The notes under the pieces are model-generated. The model saw only the letters and a program-made list of their open reading frames with translations. It was not told the DNA's origin and did not search any database. A DNA stretch of 18,218 bases from Candidatus Sulfobium sp. Its GTDB lineage: Bacteria > Nitrospirota > Thermodesulfovibrionia > Thermodesulfovibrionales > UBA6898. Both the position numbers and the translations under genes were made by a program. The DNA lies in NCBI GenBank assembly GCA_037380845.1, contig JARRRI010000010.1:20577-38794 (forward strand). Direction: 5' to 3'. Each line of letters opens with the position of its first letter. The stretch's first letter is position 1. This document shows positions 6,634 to 17,454 of this stretch, one piece after another.

Positions 6634-6948
6634 CTATCCTCCGAAGACTATGTCTTTTATTTTCAGTAGCGTAAAATTCTGCCTGTGGCCGTTCAGTTTC
6701 CTGTAACCCTTCCTCGGTTTCTTTTTGTAGACCAGCACCTTGCGGGATTTTACATCACCCACGATTTCGGCCTTCACGCTGGCATTCTCCACATACGGCT
6801 TTCCGATCTGAAGGTTGTCATCCTTCCACACGACCAGTACCTTCTCGATGTTGACATCCTTTTCACTCGCCGGCACCTTCTGCACCTTGATAGTATCGCC
6901 GGGCGATACCCTGAACTGCTGCCCTCCGCTTTCTATAACTGCATACAT
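6634..6948 (-). CDS. rplU: 50S ribosomal protein L21
   Basis: [18 protein letters not shown]...GHRQNFT; canonical rplU-rpmA-obgE order. Confidence 0.98.
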
Positions 6949-6971
6949 GATCTTGTCACCTCCGAATAGAT

Positions 6972-7000
6972 ATTAAAGAATATACGGCCAAAAAAGTCAA
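6972..7000 (-). promoter_or_regulatory. Putative sigma70 promoter of rplU-rpmA
   Basis: Minus strand TTGACT-17nt-TTTAAT. Confidence 0.55.
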
Positions 7001-7053
7001 CTTGCAGGCGACCTTCTCCGGAAAAAAGCAGGGAGTGTCATCTGCAGATTTTG

Positions 7054-7096
7054 ATGGTAGCGGCGACCCGATGTGAGCAGGCGACCACTCGCACCC
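7054..7096 (-). repeat. Degenerate duplicate of the tRNA-Pro 3' half (att site)
   Basis: 38 of 43 nt identical to 17377-17419 in the same orientation; similarity ends in the anticodon loop. Confidence 0.85.
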
Positions 7097-7343
7097 AGGA
7101 AACGATGATGGCTATAACTCTGCGCTTTCATTGACATAATCTTATCATAATTTGTGTCACATTATGAGCTATTTTAAGAAGTAATGTCTTTTCAGCTTGA
7201 GAGTCAGGGAAATCCCGATTGTTCCGAAGGCTGGGGCAGTGATAACATAAAATGTCGGGCGTTTAATAAAACAGAGCAGGCATGATACGATTGAGAGCCA
7301 TCATGACGATCATACATTTTTTACTTGTGAGGGACTGCTGACG

Positions 7344-8162
7344 ATGTCAGGTCGCAGGATGAACCGCATTAGCAGGCTGTTTCCGTATATAACGGTCTTT
7401 TTCATCATTGCTCTTTTTTCGGGAGATTTTGTGAGACTCGGCAGCCTCACCTTTCAGATTATTGCCATCCTGTCGCTCACTATTTTCGTCACTGGTTTCT
7501 GGAGCAGGGTTTCGGTGTGGGCGAAGGGTGGGTCCTCCGACATCCTGAGAAAAGCATTGGCGAGCGTTTTCTCGATAGAGTGTTTGTTCGCTTACAGACT
7601 TTTCAGCAAGAGCATGATAAGGGGCCTTATTCTGGTCCTCACAATATGGAGTTTTTCTGTCTTGACCATTGGAAGCATATGCCTTTCGCTTGAATATCTT
7701 TTAAGAACGGACCTGACTTCCTCCGGGTTCTTCTCTCTCTCCATGGACATAGCAGGATCTGCGCTTCTCCTTTCGATCCTCTTTTACCTGGGTCGAAGGC
7801 TCATTGTGGAGAGGGCCAGACAGATAGCCGTAATGGAAGACATGGTGCTGCTTTTTACTTTCCTCCTGATTGTGATAACAGGTTTTGCAAACGAAGGACT
7901 GCGTCTGGCCTACATGGGGGTCGCGCCGGAAACCATGCGTCCGGCCGGTGCCCTTCTGGCCGGGGCGATAACCTCTTTTTCGCACAATCCGGCTGTCATT
8001 TTGAGAGTCAGAGACGTCGTATGGAAGATTCATGCTCTTCTTTCCTTCTTCCTTCTGGCTTATATCCCTTTTTCGAAGCAGTTCCATATGTTCGCAGCGC
8101 AGATAGTGACGAAGGAGGCCGGGAGGAGAAAAAGGGAACTGAGGAGTATCCTGCATGAGTGA
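7344..8162 (+). CDS. NarI/HdrE/DsrM-like membrane cytochrome b subunit
   Basis: Multiple hydrophobic helices, LIVITGFANEGLRL and WKIH...YIPFSKQFH motifs; overlaps the next gene. Confidence 0.75.
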   Translation: MSGRRMNRISRLFPYITVFFIIALFSGDFVRLGSLTFQIIAILSLTIFVTGFWSRVSVWAKGGSSDILRKALASVFSIECLFAYRLFSKSMIRGLILVLTIWSFSVLTIGSICLSLEYLLRTDLTSSGFFSLSMDIAGSALLLSILFYLGRRLIVERARQIAVMEDMVLLFTFLLIVITGFANEGLRLAYMGVAPETMRPAGALLAGAITSFSHNPAVILRVRDVVWKIHALLSFFLLAYIPFSKQFHMFAAQIVTKEAGRRKRELRSILHE

Positions 8163-9357
8163 GAAAGAGACCTTCACTTCGTGCCTTTCCAGCGGGCAGC
8201 TCATCGAACTGGACGCATGCACCAGATGCGGGGAATGTCTCAAGTACTGTCCGGTTCAGGAAGTGACGGGCAGACTTTCGATCTCGCCGCCCGAGAAGAT
8301 CCGCATCTTCAGAGAATTTATAAGAGCAACTGATGGCCTCAAGGCGAGGCTCTTCGGACCCGGTGAAATCGATAGGAAATTGCTCGAAGAATTCACCAGG
8401 GCCGTATTCGAATGCACCACCTGCGGAGCCTGCGGACAGCATTGCACGGTCGGGATCTTTACCCAGCGGCTCTGGCCGATGTTGAGAAAGGAGATGGTGA
8501 GGCGCGGTATCGGACCAATCGGCGGCCAGGCAAAGATACCGGAGGTGATAAGAAATACCGGTAATCCTTATGACAAGCCCGCGGCGGAACGGTTTTCACC
8601 ATGGCTTCCCGAGAATACCAGAATCGCAGAAAAAGCGGACATAGCCTATTACGCAGGATGCACGGGAGCCTACTCCGCCCAACCGATGGTCAGGGGAGAT
8701 GTCCTGGTCCTGAACGCAATCGGAGACCGCTTCACCATGCTTCCTCCGGAAGAGGAGGTCTGCTGTGGTTTTCCGCTCTTCATAACAGGACAGCATGATA
8801 TGCTCGAGGATTTGACGAAAAGACTTGTTAACGCCTATAAAGCCAAAGGTGTGAAGGTGCTTCTCTGCTCCTGTCCCTGTTGTGTGAATATGATGTCCCG
8901 CGACTGGCCCCTTTTTTACGGGGGGGACCTGCCTTTCAAGATAAGGCATATAACACAATTCGTTGTGGAGGCGCTCAAGGACAGAAGGTTGACTATCAAA
9001 AAAGGGTTGAAGGAAAGGCTGATCTACCATGATCCCTGTTACTTGAGCAGAGGGGTGGGTATTATAGATGAGCCAAGGACAGTACTAAGAAGCATTCCCG
9101 GCATCGAACTCCTGGAATTCGAACATCACGGTCTCGAATCGCGCTGCTGCGGCGCCGGAGGGGCGGCCCGTAAGGTCTTTGCAGAAAACGCAAATGCAAT
9201 GGGCAGGCTCACCATTGATGAGGCAGTGGAAAAGAAAGCCGACAGACTCATCTTCAGTTGTCCCGCCTGTTACGCGCAGGTCAACGAGGCAATGGTTGGT
9301 TATGAGAAACAGATAACGATAACGGACATTATGGAGTTACTGGGAGGTCTCCTGTGA
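8155..9357 (+). CDS. HdrD/GlpC-like Fe-S oxidoreductase (two 4Fe-4S motifs and two CCG domains)
   Basis: CTRCGECLKYCP and CTTCGACGQHC; CCG domains YYAGC...VCCG...SCPCC and YHDPCY...RCCG...SCPAC. Confidence 0.9.
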   Translation: MSEKETFTSCLSSGQLIELDACTRCGECLKYCPVQEVTGRLSISPPEKIRIFREFIRATDGLKARLFGPGEIDRKLLEEFTRAVFECTTCGACGQHCTVGIFTQRLWPMLRKEMVRRGIGPIGGQAKIPEVIRNTGNPYDKPAAERFSPWLPENTRIAEKADIAYYAGCTGAYSAQPMVRGDVLVLNAIGDRFTMLPPEEEVCCGFPLFITGQHDMLEDLTKRLVNAYKAKGVKVLLCSCPCCVNMMSRDWPLFYGGDLPFKIRHITQFVVEALKDRRLTIKKGLKERLIYHDPCYLSRGVGIIDEPRTVLRSIPGIELLEFEHHGLESRCCGAGGAARKVFAENANAMGRLTIDEAVEKKADRLIFSCPACYAQVNEAMVGYEKQITITDIMELLGGLL

Positions 9358-10439: not shown

Positions 10440-11690
10440 CTAAAACTCGTATCGAACCTGTACATACGTGTTGTCATCCCTTGAAAACTGTCCAAAATCG
10501 CCGGCCGGCGTTCCCCCTCCGAAGACATTTGCGCCGACTGCGGCCCAGACGTGATCGGTGAAACTGTACCTGACCTCCGGATTCAGGAAGTACTCGCCCA
10601 CAGCAGGGCTGTAGAAGCCAAAAAAAGATAACTTAAGAGTCTGCTGCTTCAGAAGTTGAGTCAGCCTCAAAGAAGTCAGATCATAGTACCTCGGCCGCCC
10701 CGGAAATCCGGCCGGGAGGCTTCTCTCATAGGCCGGATGGTCGTGCATGTACTCGCCGTAATATTGCACTCCAACCGTAAAATCTTCCCACAGCTGCCTT
10801 TGGTATCCGACCAGAAACCTTGTCTGTGAATTCGGGATCATGGGGTTTGTGCCCTTTCTGTCCTGTCGTGAATCATAATAGCCCGCTTCAAGACTCAGAA
10901 CGCCGTCCAGCGCGCTCCTCTGCAGACTTGCGCCGTATACGGAGAGTTTTGGATAGAACTGGGTGAGCTTCCCGGGCATAACCGGATCATCCGGCATCAT
11001 GGACGGCTGTCTGAAAAAACCGCGATAGAAATAGACCGAAGCGTCGAATCCGGCTATGTTCCTGTATGCCCTTATGGCAACTTCCGTATCTCCGAGAGTA
11101 ACGGCCGGCTCCACCTTTCCCCTGTCGGTTACGCCCGGCATCGGATCGAAGACGTGGAACCTCCCCGGGGAGGGGTAAACGTTGCGGGTAAAGAAAGGAA
11201 TGATAACTACCTCGAAAGAAGCGAAGTCCGGATAAATACCGATCTTCGCCCCGTCGACGCCCTTCTTCAGATACCCAAGCGGCCTGCCGGAAAAAAAGGC
11301 ATCGTAATCCTTCGGAAATACGTCGTTGATGAATATCAGGTCGCCGACCCCCCACGTGATGATCTGCCTGCCGGCCCTTGCATCCCAACTGGCGGCAGTA
11401 TAATCGATATAGCCTTCTCTCAGATCCGAGTCCCATACCTGGTCAATGTGATCGTACCATCCTTCGGCCTTGATAAAAAGATGAACCGGACCTTCCGACG
11501 CATCGAGCTTCAGCTGCAGTCTTTCCTCCGCGAGTTTGAAGTCTCCGCCGTCGGGATTGGGATTATTCGATATATCGGCCGAATAGTTGCCCTGAAGGAA
11601 CCCATGGAGCGAGACTTCGGCTGCAGGGGCAGGAGGGACGAGAAGCAATATGACTGCAGCGGCGATGACGATCCTCTTCATTTGATCCAT
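10440..11690 (-). CDS. Putative outer-membrane beta-barrel protein (DUF1302-like)
   Basis: Signal peptide, LREGYID and RAGRQIITWGVGD motifs, C-terminal YVQVRYEF; third gene of an MMPL/LolA-like/OMP triad. Confidence 0.7.
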   Translation of the reverse strand: MDQMKRIVIAAAVILLLVPPAPAAEVSLHGFLQGNYSADISNNPNPDGGDFKLAEERLQLKLDASEGPVHLFIKAEGWYDHIDQVWDSDLREGYIDYTAASWDARAGRQIITWGVGDLIFINDVFPKDYDAFFSGRPLGYLKKGVDGAKIGIYPDFASFEVVIIPFFTRNVYPSPGRFHVFDPMPGVTDRGKVEPAVTLGDTEVAIRAYRNIAGFDASVYFYRGFFRQPSMMPDDPVMPGKLTQFYPKLSVYGASLQRSALDGVLSLEAGYYDSRQDRKGTNPMIPNSQTRFLVGYQRQLWEDFTVGVQYYGEYMHDHPAYERSLPAGFPGRPRYYDLTSLRLTQLLKQQTLKLSFFGFYSPAVGEYFLNPEVRYSFTDHVWAAVGANVFGGGTPAGDFGQFSRDDNTYVQVRYEF

Positions 11691-12469
11691 CTTCTGGGCG
11701 GCTGCTTCAGATAGCGCTCGGAAAAAAGACTGTCGCTTATCCCGACGTTATAATCCGCATCGAGATAAGTTACCTGAGTCATATGGTGACTTTTAAGATT
11801 CTTCATGGTCCGCTTCATGACAGTCGGAACCCCCTTCACGTCTTTCACTTCATCCGCCGTGAAGATCTTGTAGAGGTCACCCCGCTGGTCGTAGTATTCC
11901 TCTTTGAGGGGCAAAAAGTCGGCCTTGTCTATCCATAGAAGCCTGTAACTGTATTGCATGTCCCCCGCCCTCGGAGTGCTCTTTATGACATAGCAGTCCT
12001 TCGCCTTGTATTTCTCTTCTTTCACCATCTTGTGAGTGTCTTCTGCCAGGTCTCTCCCGGAGACGTCTTCGTAAGTAAAATCAGACCCTACAAAGCTCGA
12101 ATACTTGTCTCTGGCGGCTATCCTTCTCACCATATTGAGAGCGGGTACGAAGAGCCACCTGTCGGCGTCCCTGCCCGGATGTTTGTAAACCATAAAGGTC
12201 ATACCCCTTACGTCCGCCGGCCGGAAAAAGTAGATGAAATACTTCTGCTCGCCGCCGGGCGGTCCGAAGTTCTTTCTGATCATGGTCATTTCTCTCACCC
12301 TCTCCTGTCCGCCTTCGCTGATTAGCTTCATCAGGACCCGGGCCTTGAAGTCCTTACCGGGATAGAGAAAAGCGGCCTGATATTTCTCCATGACTTCATT
12401 CGCAGTCATAGCAAAGACGCTCTGCGACAACAACAAAACAACGGCGATACCAACAATCAGTTTCCTCAC
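11678..12469 (-). CDS. Outer-membrane lipoprotein-sorting (LolA-like) protein
   Basis: Signal peptide; FRPADVRGMTF, WLFVPAL..VRRI, SFVGSDFTYED, LWIDK motifs; GTG start overlapping the upstream stop. Confidence 0.85.
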   Translation of the reverse strand: MRKLIVGIAVVLLLSQSVFAMTANEVMEKYQAAFLYPGKDFKARVLMKLISEGGQERVREMTMIRKNFGPPGGEQKYFIYFFRPADVRGMTFMVYKHPGRDADRWLFVPALNMVRRIAARDKYSSFVGSDFTYEDVSGRDLAEDTHKMVKEEKYKAKDCYVIKSTPRAGDMQYSYRLLWIDKADFLPLKEEYYDQRGDLYKIFTADEVKDVKGVPTVMKRTMKNLKSHHMTQVTYLDADYNVGISDSLFSERYLKQPPRRWIK

Positions 12470-14695
12470 TTCAAGCCTCCTTTAAAAAGCTGGCCCTGAA
12501 AAAGTGTCACAAGGGCCGGCAGGTAAATAAGCGTCATAACGGCGCTAAGAATCATCATGCTCACAATAAACGCCCCGACCGTTATATAGGGCGTAAGAGG
12601 TGCAAAAATCATCACCGCGAATGACGCCGCAAAGAGAATGGCGTTCCGCATGATTCCCTTTCCGGGCCTTCCTGCCGTCCAGAGGAGAGCATCCGTCAGC
12701 GATTCTCCGGGCGTCTCCCTAAGGCGTTGCCTGAGACGGCTCACAAAATGGATGGCGAAGTCCACGGCCATACCCAGAGAAAGGGTGGAAAGGACAGAGA
12801 TGGGCATATCGAAATCCTTTCCGCTGAATCCTATGACCCCGTAAAGAAGAAGTATCGTAAATAGAAGCGGCGTATATCCCACAATTGCCCACTTGACGGA
12901 ACGGAAATCGAAAGCGAGTATGGCGAATACCACGATTAGCGCGAGGATAAATCCCTTGACCATGTCCCACAGGACATCGTTATTCCATACCAGGTTGAAG
13001 TATGCCTTTCCGGCCGGCTTCAACTCAAACAGAGAGGGATGCGCCTTCTCATACCGGTTTATGGCATTTATCACCTCTTTCAAGATCCGCCGGTTTTGCT
13101 GACATACTGAAAAGGAAGAGGTACTGACCGATCGCCTTCCCTGAGTCGGGAATTGAGTCGTATTCAGGGTCATCATCGTGCAGCACAAGGTTTATTCTCT
13201 TCAGGTAGTCGACCACAGAGGTCGTCTTTCCCACCATCGGCAGCCTTTCGAGGCTCCTCTGGAGTCCTTCTATATAATGCATGGCTTCAGGAGTTTTTAT
13301 ATAACCGTCTTTTGGCGCGGTCGCGACCACGTAACCGAGAGAGGTGCCTCCGAGGTTTTTATTTATCACGGAATCTGCAACGCGGATGTCGCTCCCCTTC
13401 TTGAACCAGTCTACAAGGTTATTGTTCACAGTTATTCTTGTCAGGCCGATGACCGCGACTACAAAGAGGACAAGCCCCACTAAAACGGTCTTCCCCGGGT
13501 GATGCGCTCCGAATCCGGCGAGTTTCTTCAGATACCCGGAGGTCTTACCGGTATCGCTGACTTCGGTCCGGGCTATCTTTTCGAGCTTCTCGTCTTTGAC
13601 AAAGGTGAACATTGCCGGTATAAAGCTGAAGCTGAGCAGCCTCAGGGAGATCGTACCGAAGGCAACAAGGCCGCCGAAGACCCTGACAGGAACGATGTTC
13701 ATGAACAAAAGCACGGCAAAACCCGCCGCCGTCGCCAGGGCGGTGTTGCGGACGGGTCGGCTCACGGCGCTCATCGTCTCGATTATCGCTGTCTTCTTGT
13801 TTCTCTTTTCCCTGTAGCGGAAGTAGAACTCATTGAAGATGTGCATGCTGTCCGTTGCGATCGCCATAAGAAAAACGGGCGCCATAGAGCTCATTATATG
13901 AATGGGAAAGCCGAGCCCGATGAGAAGCCCCATCGACCAGATGATACTCATCATTGCGTCCATCATCAGGGTGATTGACAGGAAGAGGTCGTGAAACATC
14001 AGATATCTGACGATCAGCATGACCATGCCAGCAATCGGCGCATATATCGCCATGAGCTTGAACATCTCGGCGCCGAAGGTATCGCGGGCGACGGGATCGC
14101 CGGCAATGTAGTACTTTTCGTCCCCCTTCTCCTTTCTTACGATCCCGCGTATCCTGTCTGCCACCTCCTTGCCGTTTGCCCCTTTCTCAAGCGGGACATA
14201 AATGGCGGCGGTCTTGCCGTCCTTCGAGATGGTGCGATTGATAAAAAGAGGGTTGTCGAAAAGCATCTCTTTTAAGGAGCCGAGGTCCTCTTCCTTTTCC
14301 GGCACGGTTGTCATGAGAGGGGCGACATTCAATGCCCCTTTATCCACGGTGACGTTATCGATAGTGGTAAAGCTCGACACGTCCCTGGCGGCGACTCCTT
14401 TGATCCGTAGTATCCCATCCGTTATATCTTTGATCCTGGCGAGGGTGTCACTGTTGACAATGCCCTTTTCGTTCACGACGCCGACGACTATCATGTCCTT
14501 GTAAAGGCTGAAGTCCTTGTCCACCCTGTCATTCCAGACCCTTACCGCGGATGTTGCAGGTAGCATGTTCTTGGGGTCGGTGTCGGTCCTCATCTTCGGG
14601 AACTGCGTCATGAAGGCAAGGGTTACTATTATGCAAAGCAGTACGACCAGCTTCGGATGCTCTACCGAAAACTCAACAAGAGAAAACTTACGCAT
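12466..14695 (-). pseudogene. MMPL/RND-family transporter, frameshifted near 13080
   Basis: N-terminal part 14695-13081 and C-terminal part 13080-12466 (LGMAVDFAIHF) lie in different frames and join at PADL|KEVINA; ATG 14695 has a GGGAGG RBS. Confidence 0.8.
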
Positions 14696-14742
14696 CAGAC
14701 CTCCCATATGTGCATCAAATTCATTTTAATGCCGATATGAAT

Positions 14743-15000
14743 TCAGACCACGTCTCTTCTCACAATCGCGATGCCCTCAAGCAGGCTTGCCAGAGCATCC
14801 TGCATAAGGCTGCACGCCCTCGTGATCTTCCCGTTGGCGATACCGTATCATGTGTTTTTGCCGTTTCTTCTCCCCTCCAGGATCCCCATCATGCGCATCA
14901 AAGACAGGTGCTGGGACACGTTTGCTTTCGAGGTCCTCTTAAGTTCAAAAGCAGCGGTCAGGCCGCCGAACGAGCCGCCTAATACAACTATCCTGGCCAT
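14743..15000 (-). pseudogene. Chimeric remnant: sulfide:quinone oxidoreductase-like N-terminus fused to an ArsR-family C-terminal half, with an internal TGA
   Basis: Manual translation MARIVVLGGSFGGLTAAFELKR|TSKANVSQHLSLMRMMGILEGRRNGKNT*YGIANGKITRACSLMQDAL...; strong RBS AAGGGGGAG. Confidence 0.75.
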
Positions 15001-15095
15001 GTCGTCTCCCCCTTGTGAGCCATCAGCTTTCAGCCTTTCAGCTCTAAGTGAAAACCTCTGCTTGTTGCTTGCCGGTTACCGGAAACCAATGGTTT

Positions 15096-15383
15096 TTAAA
15101 ACATACCGAGCACCTTGTCGGATTCAGCTATCAAGTCGACAAGACCGCTGTAATCGATGTCCCTGACGTCATCATTCATGGCAGTTGCCCTCAGTCCTCT
15201 TAACCTCCTGTCGTCTTCGAGGACGTAGGCCTTGCCCAAAAAACCGAGGTCTTTAAGATCTCCCCCTTTGAGAAAATAAGCGGCATTTTGCAGAAGAACT
15301 ATATCGGCCGACGTATCACGGGCAATCTTTGCTCCTCTTTTGCCTTCCGGCGTGTCCGGCGCGCTTTTTATCATCACTATCAT
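15096..15383 (-). CDS. DsrH/TusB-family sulfur relay protein
   Basis: IVLLQNAAY, YVLEDDRRLRGL, IDYSGLVDL motifs; third gene of the DsrE-F-H-like triad. Confidence 0.8.
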   Translation of the reverse strand: MIVMIKSAPDTPEGKRGAKIARDTSADIVLLQNAAYFLKGGDLKDLGFLGKAYVLEDDRRLRGLRATAMNDDVRDIDYSGLVDLIAESDKVLGMF

Positions 15384-15404: not shown

Positions 15405-15758
15405 CTAAAAGATCATCGAGGCATCAGCCTGTTTGAGGACAGCCGCTATCTGCGATTCATCCACCACCTTCACGCCCTCCAGGATGTCCTCTTCCTTCAA
15501 GCCCTGTTCCATGACGGACACATTATCCGCAAGAACCTCTATGCCCATTTCAACACAGTCTCTTAAAGTGTCTGCAAGGTCGGTGAAGCCCGTATCCGAG
15601 GCATCCTGTCCCTGTCTTGCAAGCTCGACCCCTCCATCAACAAGAATGAGCGTAGGCGATATATTCCCTGAGACGGCCCCCACGGCGTGTCTCACTGCCT
15701 CCGCGGCATTGGTGTCGCCGTAGGGCGGCTTCCTGAGTATCATCGCGATTTTTTCCAT
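15405..15758 (-). CDS. DsrF/TusC-like (DsrE superfamily) protein
   Basis: ILRKPPYG...AEAVR, LILVDGGV motifs; lacks the catalytic Cys, as expected for DsrF/TusC; GGAGG RBS. Confidence 0.8.
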   Translation of the reverse strand: MEKIAMILRKPPYGDTNAAEAVRHAVGAVSGNISPTLILVDGGVELARQGQDASDTGFTDLADTLRDCVEMGIEVLADNVSVMEQGLKEEDILEGVKVVDESQIAAVLKQADASMIF

Positions 15759-15767
15759 GATCTCCTC

Positions 15768-16124
15768 CTATGCTCCGACATTGAGCCAGATGTCGCTTTC
15801 GCCCATGGTCTTAAACAACACTTTGAGCGAGCCCATCTCTGTACCGTCCATGTAGTCTTCTTGCGCCGCACGGCGAAAGTTCAGGCAGCCCCCTCAAAGA
15901 TAGACCTTCAAGCCCTTCTGAATAAGTCTTGAGAATTCCTTCTCAGCGTTCGTAATCCCTTTTGCTTTCTGTTCTTTCAGAAAGCAATAGATTCCGTCGG
16001 CCGAAGCGATCACGTTGACGGCGTGTCCCTTGCCAAGGGCGGCGTCGGCAATCCTGATCGTCGAGAAGGTATTTTCGCAGGAATACGGCGAGGTAGACAG
16101 AAACAGTGTGATGTTTTTTCCCAT
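15768..16124 (-). CDS. DsrE/TusD-like sulfurtransferase, probable selenoprotein (UGA = Sec at codon 77, UxxC motif), 118 aa
   Basis: TSPYS...ADGIY DsrE motifs; TGA at 15894-15896 sits at the catalytic Cys position; the frame continues GGCLNFRRAAQEDYMDGTEMGSLKVLFKTMGESDIWLNVGA to a TAG abutting the next RBS. Confidence 0.8.
15858..15893 (-). promoter_or_regulatory. Putative bacterial SECIS element
   Basis: mRNA after UGA reads GGGGGCUGCCUGAA-CUU-U-CGCC-GUGC-GGCG-C-AAG; the apical loop starts with GU, 22 nt downstream of UGA. Confidence 0.6.
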
Positions 16125-16141: not shown

Positions 16142-16484
16142 TTAATTCTTCCTTTCACCCGGATATTTCCCCTTCCTTGTCACAGGACAACAGGCCTGGG
16201 CCGGCAGATCGTATTCATATTTCTTTCCGAGCAACTCCAAGCAGATCCGGGATGAAAGGCTCTTTGAGAAAATAACAACGGAGTTTCCCGTCAATATAGA
16301 AATCAATCAAATCATGATTCCGAAGCAGAGGGAGATGCTGCGAAATGCTGGACTGCCGGATTTCGGAGAACCCTTCCAGATCGCTGACGCACTTTACCCC
16401 TTTTCCGAACTCTTCGAGGATCTGTCTTCTCACCGGATGAGCAATGCCTCTCAGTACTTCCAATTTCTCTTCGCGGCTGATCAT
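16142..16484 (-). CDS. ArsR/SmtB-family regulator with a probable 1-nt frameshift near 16240 (the uninterrupted frame stops at 16215)
   Basis: AHPVRRQIL, CVSDL, QSSISQHL HTH motifs; the shifted frame continues LELLGKKYEYDLPAQACCPVTRKGKYPGERKN to a TAA just upstream of the dsrE-like RBS. Confidence 0.75.
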
Positions 16485-16502
16485 CGGGGCCTTCTATTCA
16501 CA

Positions 16503-16549
16503 TATTCAGAGGTTTGAATAGTATTACAGTCCTTGAATATATTTGTCAA
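16503..16549 (-). promoter_or_regulatory. Promoter of the ArsR operon with tandem ArsR-type operator palindromes
   Basis: Minus strand TTGACA at 16544-16549; TATTCA-N6-TGAATA (16503-16520) and TATTAC-N6-TGAATA (16522-16539). Confidence 0.65.
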
Positions 16550-16639
16550 GGATTTTTTTGTAATCAAGTGCAAAAAATAACGCCCCTTTCTTCCACGAAT
16601 TTCCGAGAGGGCTCTGACGCTGCAAAAAAAGGAGTGGAT

Positions 16640-16659
16640 CCTTCCTGCCGGCAGGCAGG
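16640..16659. repeat. 20-nt near-perfect palindrome (REP-like)
   Basis: CCTTCCTGCCGGCAGGCAGG, one mismatch from the perfect palindrome CCTGCCTGCCGGCAGGCAGG. Confidence 0.55.
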
Positions 16660-16872
16660 CCCGGCTAAGAAGCCCGGGCATGAAGGGATAGAGGCTCACC
16701 CTGGACTTAACATTCGGTGGAGTCTGGGCGGCCCTATCACCTTTCCGATAAACCAGGAATGAAGCTATTCAGGCCTTTGTGTTTCAGATTGAAACAGCTT
16801 CCAAGTTTCTTTGCACAGGGTGGAAACCAGGAATTTACAAAAGCAGAATACTTTCGGGACAGGTCACCTCTT

Positions 16873-16995
16873 AGGCAATTCGGTGTCCCTGTTGCACTGC
16901 CTACAGAAGACATTTTCAAAGATTTTTCGTATCGATTTCTTATTTGAGGCAACGATTCACTTTCGTATCGTTTTTCAGTGAGGCAATTCGGTGTC
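16873..16995. repeat. Cluster of short direct repeats
   Basis: AGGCAATTCGGTGTC x2 (16873, 16981), TTTCGTATCG x2 (16925, 16961), TGAGGCAA x2 (16945, 16979). Confidence 0.7.
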
Positions 16996-17349
16996 TTGCA
17001 AAGAAAGGCTAAATGAATATACAATGATCACGACTTGAGAGGGGGCTAATCCAAGAAAAGGAGGGAAAATTGAAAAAGGCTTTTTGCATTGCAAGTTTGT
17101 TTTTGCTTTTGTTCGCAGTGACGGCAGACGTGGGCCCCATTCCCGGCCCCTCTCCCCGGCACCCCTGAAAACCTATGGCTATGGAAAAAGGATCCCCTCA
17201 AGCATTTGACATGATAACAAATTGTTGGCATTTATTTAACAGGGATGATACTGCCAAACTTTCTATGTACTGATGAATCCAGGCGGGATACAAACCCACC
17301 GAACGACTACCGAACGAAAAAACGGGGAATTTCTCCCCACTTCTCAGGC

Positions 17350-17362
17350 TAACTACTTGATT
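17350..17362. promoter_or_regulatory. IHF consensus site beside the tRNA att site
   Basis: TAACTACTTGATT is the exact reverse complement of WATCAANNNNTTR, 15 nt from the tRNA CCA end. Confidence 0.55.
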
Positions 17363-17377
17363 TTACAGAAAGGGTAA

Positions 17378-17454
17378 TGGTCGGGGCGACCCGATTTGAA
17401 CGGGCGACCACTCGCACCCCAAGCGAGTGCGCTACCAGGCTGCGCCACGCCCCG
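17378..17454 (-). tRNA. tRNA-Pro (GGG)
   Basis: 77 nt, CGGGGCGTGGCGCAGCCTGGTAGCGCACTCGCTTGGGGTGCGAGTGGTCGCCCGTTCAAATCGGGTCGCCCCGACCA; full cloverleaf with encoded CCA. Confidence 0.98.

Follow-up and report, generated by a model that had tools for sequence, protein, structure and literature searches.

An in-frame TGA almost certainly read as selenocysteine in a small DsrE/YchN-like gene heading a DsrE-F-H-type operon of Candidatus Sulfobium

The TGA that interrupts a small sulfur-carrier-like gene of Candidatus Sulfobium sp. (Nitrospirota; Thermodesulfovibrionales; UBA6898) is almost certainly read as selenocysteine (Sec, U). The gene, here called the Sec-DsrE or E gene, lies on the minus strand at 15768..16124 of an 18,218-nucleotide (nt) stretch of contig JARRRI010000010.1 (GenBank assembly GCA_037380845.1, positions 20,577 to 38,794), referred to throughout as the window, and its TGA (codon 77, 15894..15896, minus strand) is conserved among relatives and falls in a column occupied by cysteine (Cys) in homologues. 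Taken as a whole, the explanation that we regard as highly probable is that of a Sec-decoded protein of the DsrE/YchN fold with a proposed role as a carrier of sulfane sulfur. Its core, namely decoding of UGA77 as Sec, an in-frame hairpin and a U-x-x-C motif on a DsrE fold, is strongly supported by comparative sequence evidence, and the carrier role is weighed separately below.

Read with translation table 11, the open reading frame (ORF) at 15894..16124 encodes 76 amino acids (aa), starting at an ATG at 16124 with a ribosome-binding site (AAAGGAGG) ahead of it and ending at TGA 15894-15896. When the TGA is translated as U, the frame stays open for 41 more codons up to a TAG at 15768-15770, yielding a 118-aa product with the sequence ...KVYL-U-GG-C-LNFRR... 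around the interruption, in which the second residue of the U-x-x-C motif is Cys80 (15885..15887, minus strand); the stop is separated by 9 nt from the ATG of the next gene (15758). An initial annotation of the window had claimed the 76-aa ORF with its TGA stop, the 41-residue continuation to 118 aa, the 9-nt spacing and a hairpin 22 nt further on, and all of these are present. Pfam DsrE (PF02635) matches the read-through product with an E-value of 5.6e-14 at residues 3-112 (model positions 1-112 of 116), so that the domain continues across the TGA. Contigs from three public runs belonging to at least two studies cover TGA 15894-15896 with no differing letter, and it is therefore not a sequencing error of the present assembly. 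Among the public runs listed for the stretch, none was of RNA. An open stretch of 41 codons is by itself unremarkable and within chance, and the features of the single sequence (open frame and hairpin) are alone not beyond chance; it is, in our assessment, the comparative evidence that lifts them beyond it.

That evidence comes from a six-frame, stop-counting search with the Sec-DsrE protein of 41 related genomes and of 301 genomes sampled across the phylum. All 28 matches at E <= 2e-23 in the related genomes had exactly one in-frame TGA each, and the weaker matches there (<=31% identity) were other DsrE paralogues without a TGA. Across the phylum sample, 91 of the 96 matches at E <= 1e-20 carried the TGA, four were uninterrupted and one spanned residues 1-70 only (counted by hand from the search table). 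One of the 91 is an orthologue with two in-frame TGAs (G071:C185:2499-2849). At the looser threshold of E <= 1e-10, a match was found in 90 of the 301 sampled genomes, a figure in which a few weak hits to unrelated DsrE proteins are counted. A search for related loci in genome contigs gave seven loci, six of which were true relatives, all from metagenome-assembled genomes of Nitrospirota/Thermodesulfovibrionales. On this distribution, the TGA is evidently ancient and not strain-specific.

Two clades of Sec forms were distinguished, and all Sec forms examined had either the UGGC or the UTGC motif. Clade 1, to which the window gene belongs, comprises proteins of 116-118 aa with U77 and UGGC, and 40 distinct genes share its TGA codon; clade 2 comprises proteins of 114 aa with U73 and UTGC, and includes a paralogue on contig C13 of the same genome. 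In the four uninterrupted orthologues, which read VEL-C-GTC-L, it is Cys that occupies the Sec column. When 35 homologues with identities as low as 26% were aligned (alignment A1), positions 77, as Cys, and Cys80 were among the few columns conserved at 90% or more. Nucleotide diversity among the 40 clade-1 genes was distributed over codon positions 1/2/3 as 0.162/0.103/0.556 upstream of the TGA and 0.155/0.083/0.459 downstream of it; judged by this pattern, the frame past the TGA evolves as coding sequence and is hence translated. In four loci of the Cys type (L056-L059), an ArsR-like gene is likewise found upstream, and an SQR-like gene (see below) downstream, with rhodanese-like and YeeE-like ORFs further on as judged by eye from the translations; L059 has a second DsrH-like ORF and a stretch of masked letters.

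These results bear directly on the simplest alternative, in which the TGA is a true stop, whether created by nonsense mutation in a gene undergoing decay or ending a 76-residue stub that the cell makes, perhaps accompanied by a separate downstream peptide. Public databases do carry such proteins, as 76-, 75- and 72-aa "DsrE family/TusD" entries with the tail as 38-aa "hypothetical proteins", and an SQR-like gene neighbouring the E gene in the window is truly truncated. We nevertheless consider a true stop very improbable, given that 91 of 96 strong matches in the phylum sample have the TGA at this very codon, that variation downstream is biased to third positions as it is upstream, that orthologues with Cys exist and that the Sec machinery is present in the genome. 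The predicted structure points the same way. An AlphaFold model of the 118-residue product (predicted local distance difference test score, 94.4; predicted template modelling score, 0.87) places two strands (95-98 and 112-116) and two helices (78-83 and 100-109) after residue 77, and in this model the 76-residue stub is an incomplete domain, deprived of two of five strands and two helices.

The genome encodes what is needed for decoding UGA as Sec. The selB gene (331.6 bits; cut-off, 242.25) adjoins selA (620.3 bits; cut-off, 267.9), selD exceeds its cut-off with 311.9 bits summed, and a tRNA-SeC(tca) gene lies on contig C31. None of the outcomes that the initial annotation had named as refuting its reading (a genome without Sec machinery, homologues with neither Cys nor TGA at the column, a TGA confined to this strain) was observed. 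The selD match (G000:C20:72213-73058; L009) itself contains one in-frame TGA, and the selenophosphate synthetase of this genome is probably a selenoprotein as well. Since sequence evidence for translation past a TGA does not itself name the residue that is inserted, we also weighed read-through without Sec, either by reassignment of TGA (tables 4 or 25) or by a near-cognate tRNA inserting Trp or Cys. Six neighbouring ORFs in the window stop at TGA, including the DsrM-like, DsrK-like, LolA-like and ArsR genes, and 13 orthologues of the E gene terminate in TGA at codon 119, which excludes a reassigned code. Along with the retention of selA, selB, selD and tRNA-SeC, the coincidence of the TGA column with the catalytic Cys column and a conserved hairpin at the position of a selenocysteine insertion sequence (SECIS), which is absent from Cys orthologues, make non-Sec read-through an improbable explanation, to the point that we give it hardly any weight.

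The SECIS-like hairpin (15860..15879, minus strand) lies within the coding sequence, 15-34 nt past the UGA, and consists of an 8-bp stem, CUUUCGCC-GUGC-GGCGCAAG, with one U-C mismatch in the window copy. Its GUGC loop begins 22 nt after the A of the UGA (nt 26-29 counted from the U), and the distance from UGA to loop in bacterial SECIS elements is usually roughly 16-37 nt. In the 40 clade-1 sequences, 93.4% of stem cells were paired, against 47.5-60.6% when the 3' partner was slid by one to three columns. Synonymous variation is suppressed at the same place: codons 82-87 (N-F-R-R-A-A) had a normalised codon entropy of 0.23, the remainder of the gene reaching 0.81, and no other of the 98 six-codon windows was so low in synonymous diversity (rank 1; Mann-Whitney p = 5e-5); the seven six-codon windows of lowest entropy all overlapped the hairpin. 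Arg84 is encoded by CGC in 40/40 sequences and Ala87 by GCG in 38/38, and Arg24 by six different codons.

The hairpin of clade 2 keeps the register but not the stem sequence, its GUCU loop again occupying nt 26-29, and 92.6% of its stem cells were paired, compared with 28.0-50.9% in slid registers. Here, 12 cells were altered on both sides, one pair being seen as GC, CG and UA, and none of 500 shuffles matched the count of both-side changes or the covariation score. Over the equivalent 27 nt, Cys orthologues folded at -2.2 to -4.9 kcal/mol and Sec forms at -7.9 to -12.1 kcal/mol, and the Cys orthologues are a natural control without the hairpin.

Several results weigh against the clade-1 hairpin, and that of the window in particular, as a SECIS element. 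The U-C mismatch of the window recurs at the same pair in six of the 40 clade-1 sequences. Compensatory changes in clade 1 were confined to two pairs, both in a single sequence (L061), and RNAalifold predicted six of the eight stem pairs in this clade with no compensatory pair among those six. The predicted energy of the window hairpin (-11.1 kcal/mol) corresponded to z = +0.57, with 141 of 200 shuffles folding at least as well, and Rfam at gathering thresholds found only a tRNA in the whole window, with no family for the hairpin; a relaxed search (E <= 10 over 15700-16000) returned three matches at chance level, none for the hairpin. The z-scores against shuffles elsewhere were +0.22 for the C13 paralogue, +0.64 for L024 and, mildly, -1.33 for L061. 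Folding energy was dropped as evidence for a SECIS because the shuffles were not significant for the window, C13 and L024.

The motif sits where a reactive residue would be expected on this fold. In the AlphaFold model, U77 is the last residue of strand 73-77, and helix 78-83 has Cys80 in its first turn. The family profile matched YchN (1.4e-21), DsrE (2hy5_A, 3e-14) and TusD (2d1p_A, 7.6e-10) among solved structures, and superposition of the model gave template modelling scores of 0.88 for YchN (1jx7; root-mean-square deviation, 1.5 A), 0.90 for DsrE (2hy5_A) and 0.84 for TusD. In the profile alignment, the U77 column corresponds to Cys78 of Allochromatium vinosum DsrE (2hy5_A; residue counted from the printed alignment), the persulfide-carrying position at which the initial annotation had placed the Sec. 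DsrE and TusD read C-V-A-A at the motif and have no second Cys, and the CxxC of YchN aligns with U-G-G-C.

The gene opens the E-F-H row of a conserved operon. It is directly followed by a gene for a DsrF/TusC-like subunit (15405..15758, minus strand; 117 aa; Pfam DsrE, 5.7e-13) without Cys at the active-site column, and then by a gene for a DsrH/TusB-like subunit (15096..15383, minus strand; 95 aa; Pfam DsrH, 1.9e-08) that is free of Cys; among 49 distinct orthologues of the H-like protein, no conserved Cys was found. The E-F-H order, with the Sec gene at the head, was kept in 50 of 53 loci. Two further loci had E-F only, H being undetected at the threshold, and one had E alone at a contig end, and thus an F-like gene directly followed the Sec gene in 52/53. 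Upstream of E lies a gene for an ArsR/SmtB-family regulator (16215..16484, minus strand; NCBIfam HTH_metalloreg, 55.1 bits at a cut-off of 55, with a weak BigR match), which was found within the available upstream flank in 35/53 loci, and whose Cys residues C32 and C70 were invariant in 39/39 distinct orthologues.

Downstream of the H gene, an ORF starting MAKIVVLGGSFGGLTAAFELKRLLG... follows directly in 37 of 44 relatives' loci, with three having another ORF and four too little flank. The 395-aa protein that it encodes in relatives is a Pyr_redox_2 flavoprotein with type III sulfide:quinone reductase (SQR) as its best NCBIfam match, and since this scored 100.6 bits against a cut-off of 525, we label it only "SQR-like". 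In the window, a remnant of this gene is found as a 50-codon ORF (14848..15000, minus strand), the N-terminus of which matches the relatives' protein. Genes for an RND (HAE3/MMPL-type) transporter (12466..14707, minus strand; Pfam MMPL, NCBIfam HAE3), a LolA-like protein (11678-12469, minus strand; Pfam LolA_like, 1.6e-62) and a 416-aa protein without a family match in Pfam or NCBIfam (10440-11690, minus strand) then follow, as they do in the longer relatives' loci. The RND gene was syntenic in G009, G020, G245, G012 and L070, and the LolA-like and 416-aa genes in G009 and G245. About 6 kb from the triad, on the plus strand (7344-9357), the window encodes a DsrM/NarI-like membrane protein and a DsrK/HdrD-like CCG iron-sulfur protein. 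In G009, a DsrK-like gene (78% identical; L066:2849-4048) is part of the cluster, flanked by the RND gene on one side and the LolA-like gene on the other, and no DsrK-like gene was found within 19 kb of cluster sequence in G245. On the other side of the operon, a tRNA-Pro(GGG) gene (17378-17454, minus strand) separates MerR-family/HU genes from a long stretch poor in genes (16485-17377) that lies upstream of ArsR.

The comparative evidence strongly supports decoding of UGA77 as Sec by SelB with Sec-tRNA(Sec), recruited by the in-frame hairpin (15879..15860). Sec is thereby placed at the end of a beta-strand, at the position of the persulfide-carrying Cys78 of DsrE/TusD, and the helix that follows has Cys80 in its first turn. 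For the further steps, we propose a mechanism from homology and synteny. The E, F and H proteins would assemble as in DsrEFH/TusBCD, with E presumably the only subunit bearing a reactive centre. The selenol of E would take up zero-valent (sulfane) sulfur as an Se-S(n) adduct, which Cys80 may resolve or hand on. In relatives, the adjacent SQR-like flavoprotein would be the probable source of sulfane sulfur, and the two-cysteine ArsR-type repressor probably acts as a sensor or switch of the operon. In the window, where the SQR-like partner is deleted, the triad may draw on another sulfur source or may be redundant next to the paralogous Sec operon.

A persulfide or sulfane-sulfur carrier on these lines seems to us, on balance, somewhat probable. 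It does not exclude a UxxC selenol/thiol oxidoreductase, comparable to the thioredoxin-fold UxxC selenoproteins, that would reduce polysulfide, persulfides or a disulfide of a partner and be recycled by the flavoprotein or by the DsrMK-like quinol-linked complex, since the two roles are not mutually exclusive. The second Cys is missing from the carriers DsrE and TusD and is common to YchN, the position of the motif at the strand-to-helix junction is like that of redox CxxC motifs, and a selenoprotein catalogue groups the family with redox UxxC proteins in its family listing (PMC1088965). The genomic context would likewise suit such an enzyme, with a neighbour of the pyridine-nucleotide-disulfide-oxidoreductase family in relatives, the DsrM/DsrK-like pair in the window and the DsrK-like gene inside the cluster in G009. 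We regard the oxidoreductase as possible rather than probable, as the protein has the fold and active-site column of sulfur carriers, and partners of the F- and H-like kind are what relay complexes typically have.

Other observations count against a relay of the DsrEFH/TusBCD kind. The F-like protein scored 36.2 bits with NCBIfam TusC (TIGR03010; cut-off, 94.15) and the H-like protein 39.6 bits with TusB (TIGR03011; cut-off, 49.2), and for the E-like protein NCBIfam yielded no TusD/DsrE equivalog and only a weak DsrE2 match (18.9 against 210 bits). The closest solved relative by sequence profile is Escherichia coli YchN, which is encoded alone and forms a homo-oligomer in the crystal, and for which we know of no function. 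YchN shares with the E protein the DsrE fold and a CxxC motif at the strand-to-helix junction; it differs in having Cys instead of Sec, and F- and H-like genes follow the gene of the window. Of the triad of DsrEFH/TusBCD type that the initial annotation had proposed, the gene order is borne out by the F- and H-like genes following in 50/53 loci, whereas the type is put in question by the scores below cut-off and by the proximity to YchN. The absence of dsr and tus partners that it had pointed out holds for dsrAB/dsrC and tusE/mnmA, none of which was found in the window in Pfam and NCBIfam scans, and needs qualifying for the DsrM/DsrK-like pair. As to its suggestion of a role in sulfane sulfur or selenium handling, the former is supported by the relatives' SQR-like gene (deleted in the window) and nothing favours the latter.

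The state of the window copy raises the further question of whether it is functional. Only residues 1-22 (91% identical) or 1-31 (74%) of the 395-aa SQR-like protein are left (15000..14914). The region 14482-15049 is matched letter for letter by a contig of run X9, which comes from another study, and the deletion is therefore real and not a mis-join. The same genome carries a second Sec operon on contig C13, the E gene of which (G000:C13:42986-43324; L060:6987-7328) has U73 and UTGC and encodes a protein 48% identical to that of the window; this operon is intact as ArsR-E(U)-F-H-SQR-like, with its own covarying hairpin. One alternative is therefore that the selenoprotein family is real and the window copy is a redundant relic, the C13 operon being the working system. 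The loss of the SQR-like partner (cut to 22-31 codons, in agreement with the independent assembly) weighs against a functional window copy, as do the finding of no more than the clade-2 gene in the three same-genus genomes searched (89-98% complete) and several private substitutions (among them G102V and L20F relative to aligned orthologues) where the position is otherwise conserved; these features are compatible with a redundant copy. A relic is nonetheless rather unlikely in our view: none of the E, F, H and ArsR frames is broken and all have good ribosome-binding sites, neither the hairpin nor the UxxC motif has been lost, and the same sequence, which recurs in marsh habitats, is unchanged in contigs of runs from at least two studies. 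The RND gene looks split into two overlapping frames, which would suggest a decaying locus, but this is an assembly gap: at 13082/13083, the contigs of runs X8 and X1 contain a further 74 letters that would restore the frame, and the RND gene is probably intact. In a single-contig genome (L063; G029:C1:745000-757000, 6943-8634), a clade-2 Sec triad has E, F and H intact, and downstream of it are only fragments of the SQR-like (39-156), RND (186-329) and 416-aa (13-71 and 315-416) proteins, which look degraded.

As the initial annotation had stated, DsrE-like selenoproteins are a known family. The "DsrE-like protein" (PF02635, UxxC) was catalogued by Zhang, Fomenko & Gladyshev (2005; PMC1088965), a Desulfovibrio vulgaris member appears in the tables of Zhang et al. 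(2006; PMC1794560), and two reviews, one of 2022 (PMC9312934) and one of 2026 (PMC13188914), list the family with reference to Kryukov & Gladyshev (2004); the latter review, in its treatment of the family, describes the functions of DsrE-like selenoproteins as largely uncharacterised. With the catalogued proteins, as their entries describe them, the window gene shares the Pfam domain, a UxxC motif with Sec first, Cys homologues and a hairpin past the UGA with a G in its small loop. The present branch departs from those entries in coming from uncultured Nitrospirota/Thermodesulfovibrionales, and its gene always stands first in the triad of an ArsR-E-F-H(-SQR-like) operon. To judge from its sequence, the gene is a mis-annotated additional member of this known family, and the ArsR-E(U)-F-H-SQR-like-RND context is the modestly new part and a testable lead.

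Comparison with the known triads gives a mixed picture. Like DsrEFH of A. vinosum (2hy5) and TusBCD of E. coli (2d1p), the canonical sulfur relay heterohexamers that make up type I, the operon consists of three consecutive genes of the same three subfamilies, with the reactive residue only on the E/TusD-like subunit in the Cys78 column. It differs from type I in having Sec for Cys, an extra Cys80, a Cys-less H and equivalog scores below cut-off, and in not adjoining dsrAB/dsrC or tusE/mnmA. DsrEFH type II (Plum-Jensen et al. 2026, PMC13293266) is a triad that sulfate reducers and disproportionators carry in linkage with tusA/yeeE and that, in that paper's account of it, is likewise divergent, occurs in dsrAB organisms, is common in Nitrospirota and has a single functional Cys on E; it is unlike the triad of the window in its synteny with tusA and yeeE, and neither TusA nor YeeE was found adjoining the triad in the window or the examined loci. 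The same genome has a row of genes at the end of contig C96 (G000:C96:5546-6959; L076) that encodes DsrH-like, DsrE-family (CxxC), DsrE-family and TusA proteins and resembles the type II cluster as that paper depicts it; its triad subunits are at most 28% identical to those of the window, over partial alignments. Genes of the dsrA/dsrB type and dsrC lie on contig C51 and a second DsrC-like gene on C2. Tentatively, Sec-DsrE and its F- and H-like partners could represent a third DsrEFH-type relay, neither type I nor the tusA-linked type II, with a selenol acceptor that would be fed by the SQR-like protein, controlled by an ArsR persulfide sensor and coupled to an RND/LolA-like exporter, and that would be widespread in sulfate-reducing or disproportionating Nitrospirota.

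Our literature search returned no paper linking selenocysteine to a DsrE-F-H triad or to YchN; the sole match for selenocysteine with DsrE and DsrF, a paper on Methanococcus maripaludis, was set aside as not relevant. Selenocysteine is never mentioned (0 occurrences) in the study defining type II (PMC13293266). As its search is described there, hidden Markov models were run on called proteins with an 80-bit cut-off, and by that procedure 76-aa stubs may be missed.

More than 100 database clusters of the Sec-DsrE protein end at the TGA, from Nitrospirota or Thermodesulfovibrionales where named, with the tail as a 38-aa hypothetical protein. The annotation error is thus systematic across the phylum, with gene callers cutting E to 72-76 residues, and as E is cut at the TGA in called proteins, protein-based surveys of sulfur relays under-count or mis-class the triad. 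What is known of Sec decoding is itself unchanged by the finding. The operon gives a context in which the function of a largely uncharacterised selenoprotein family can be tested, and points to the handling of zero-valent sulfur in dsrAB-bearing organisms.

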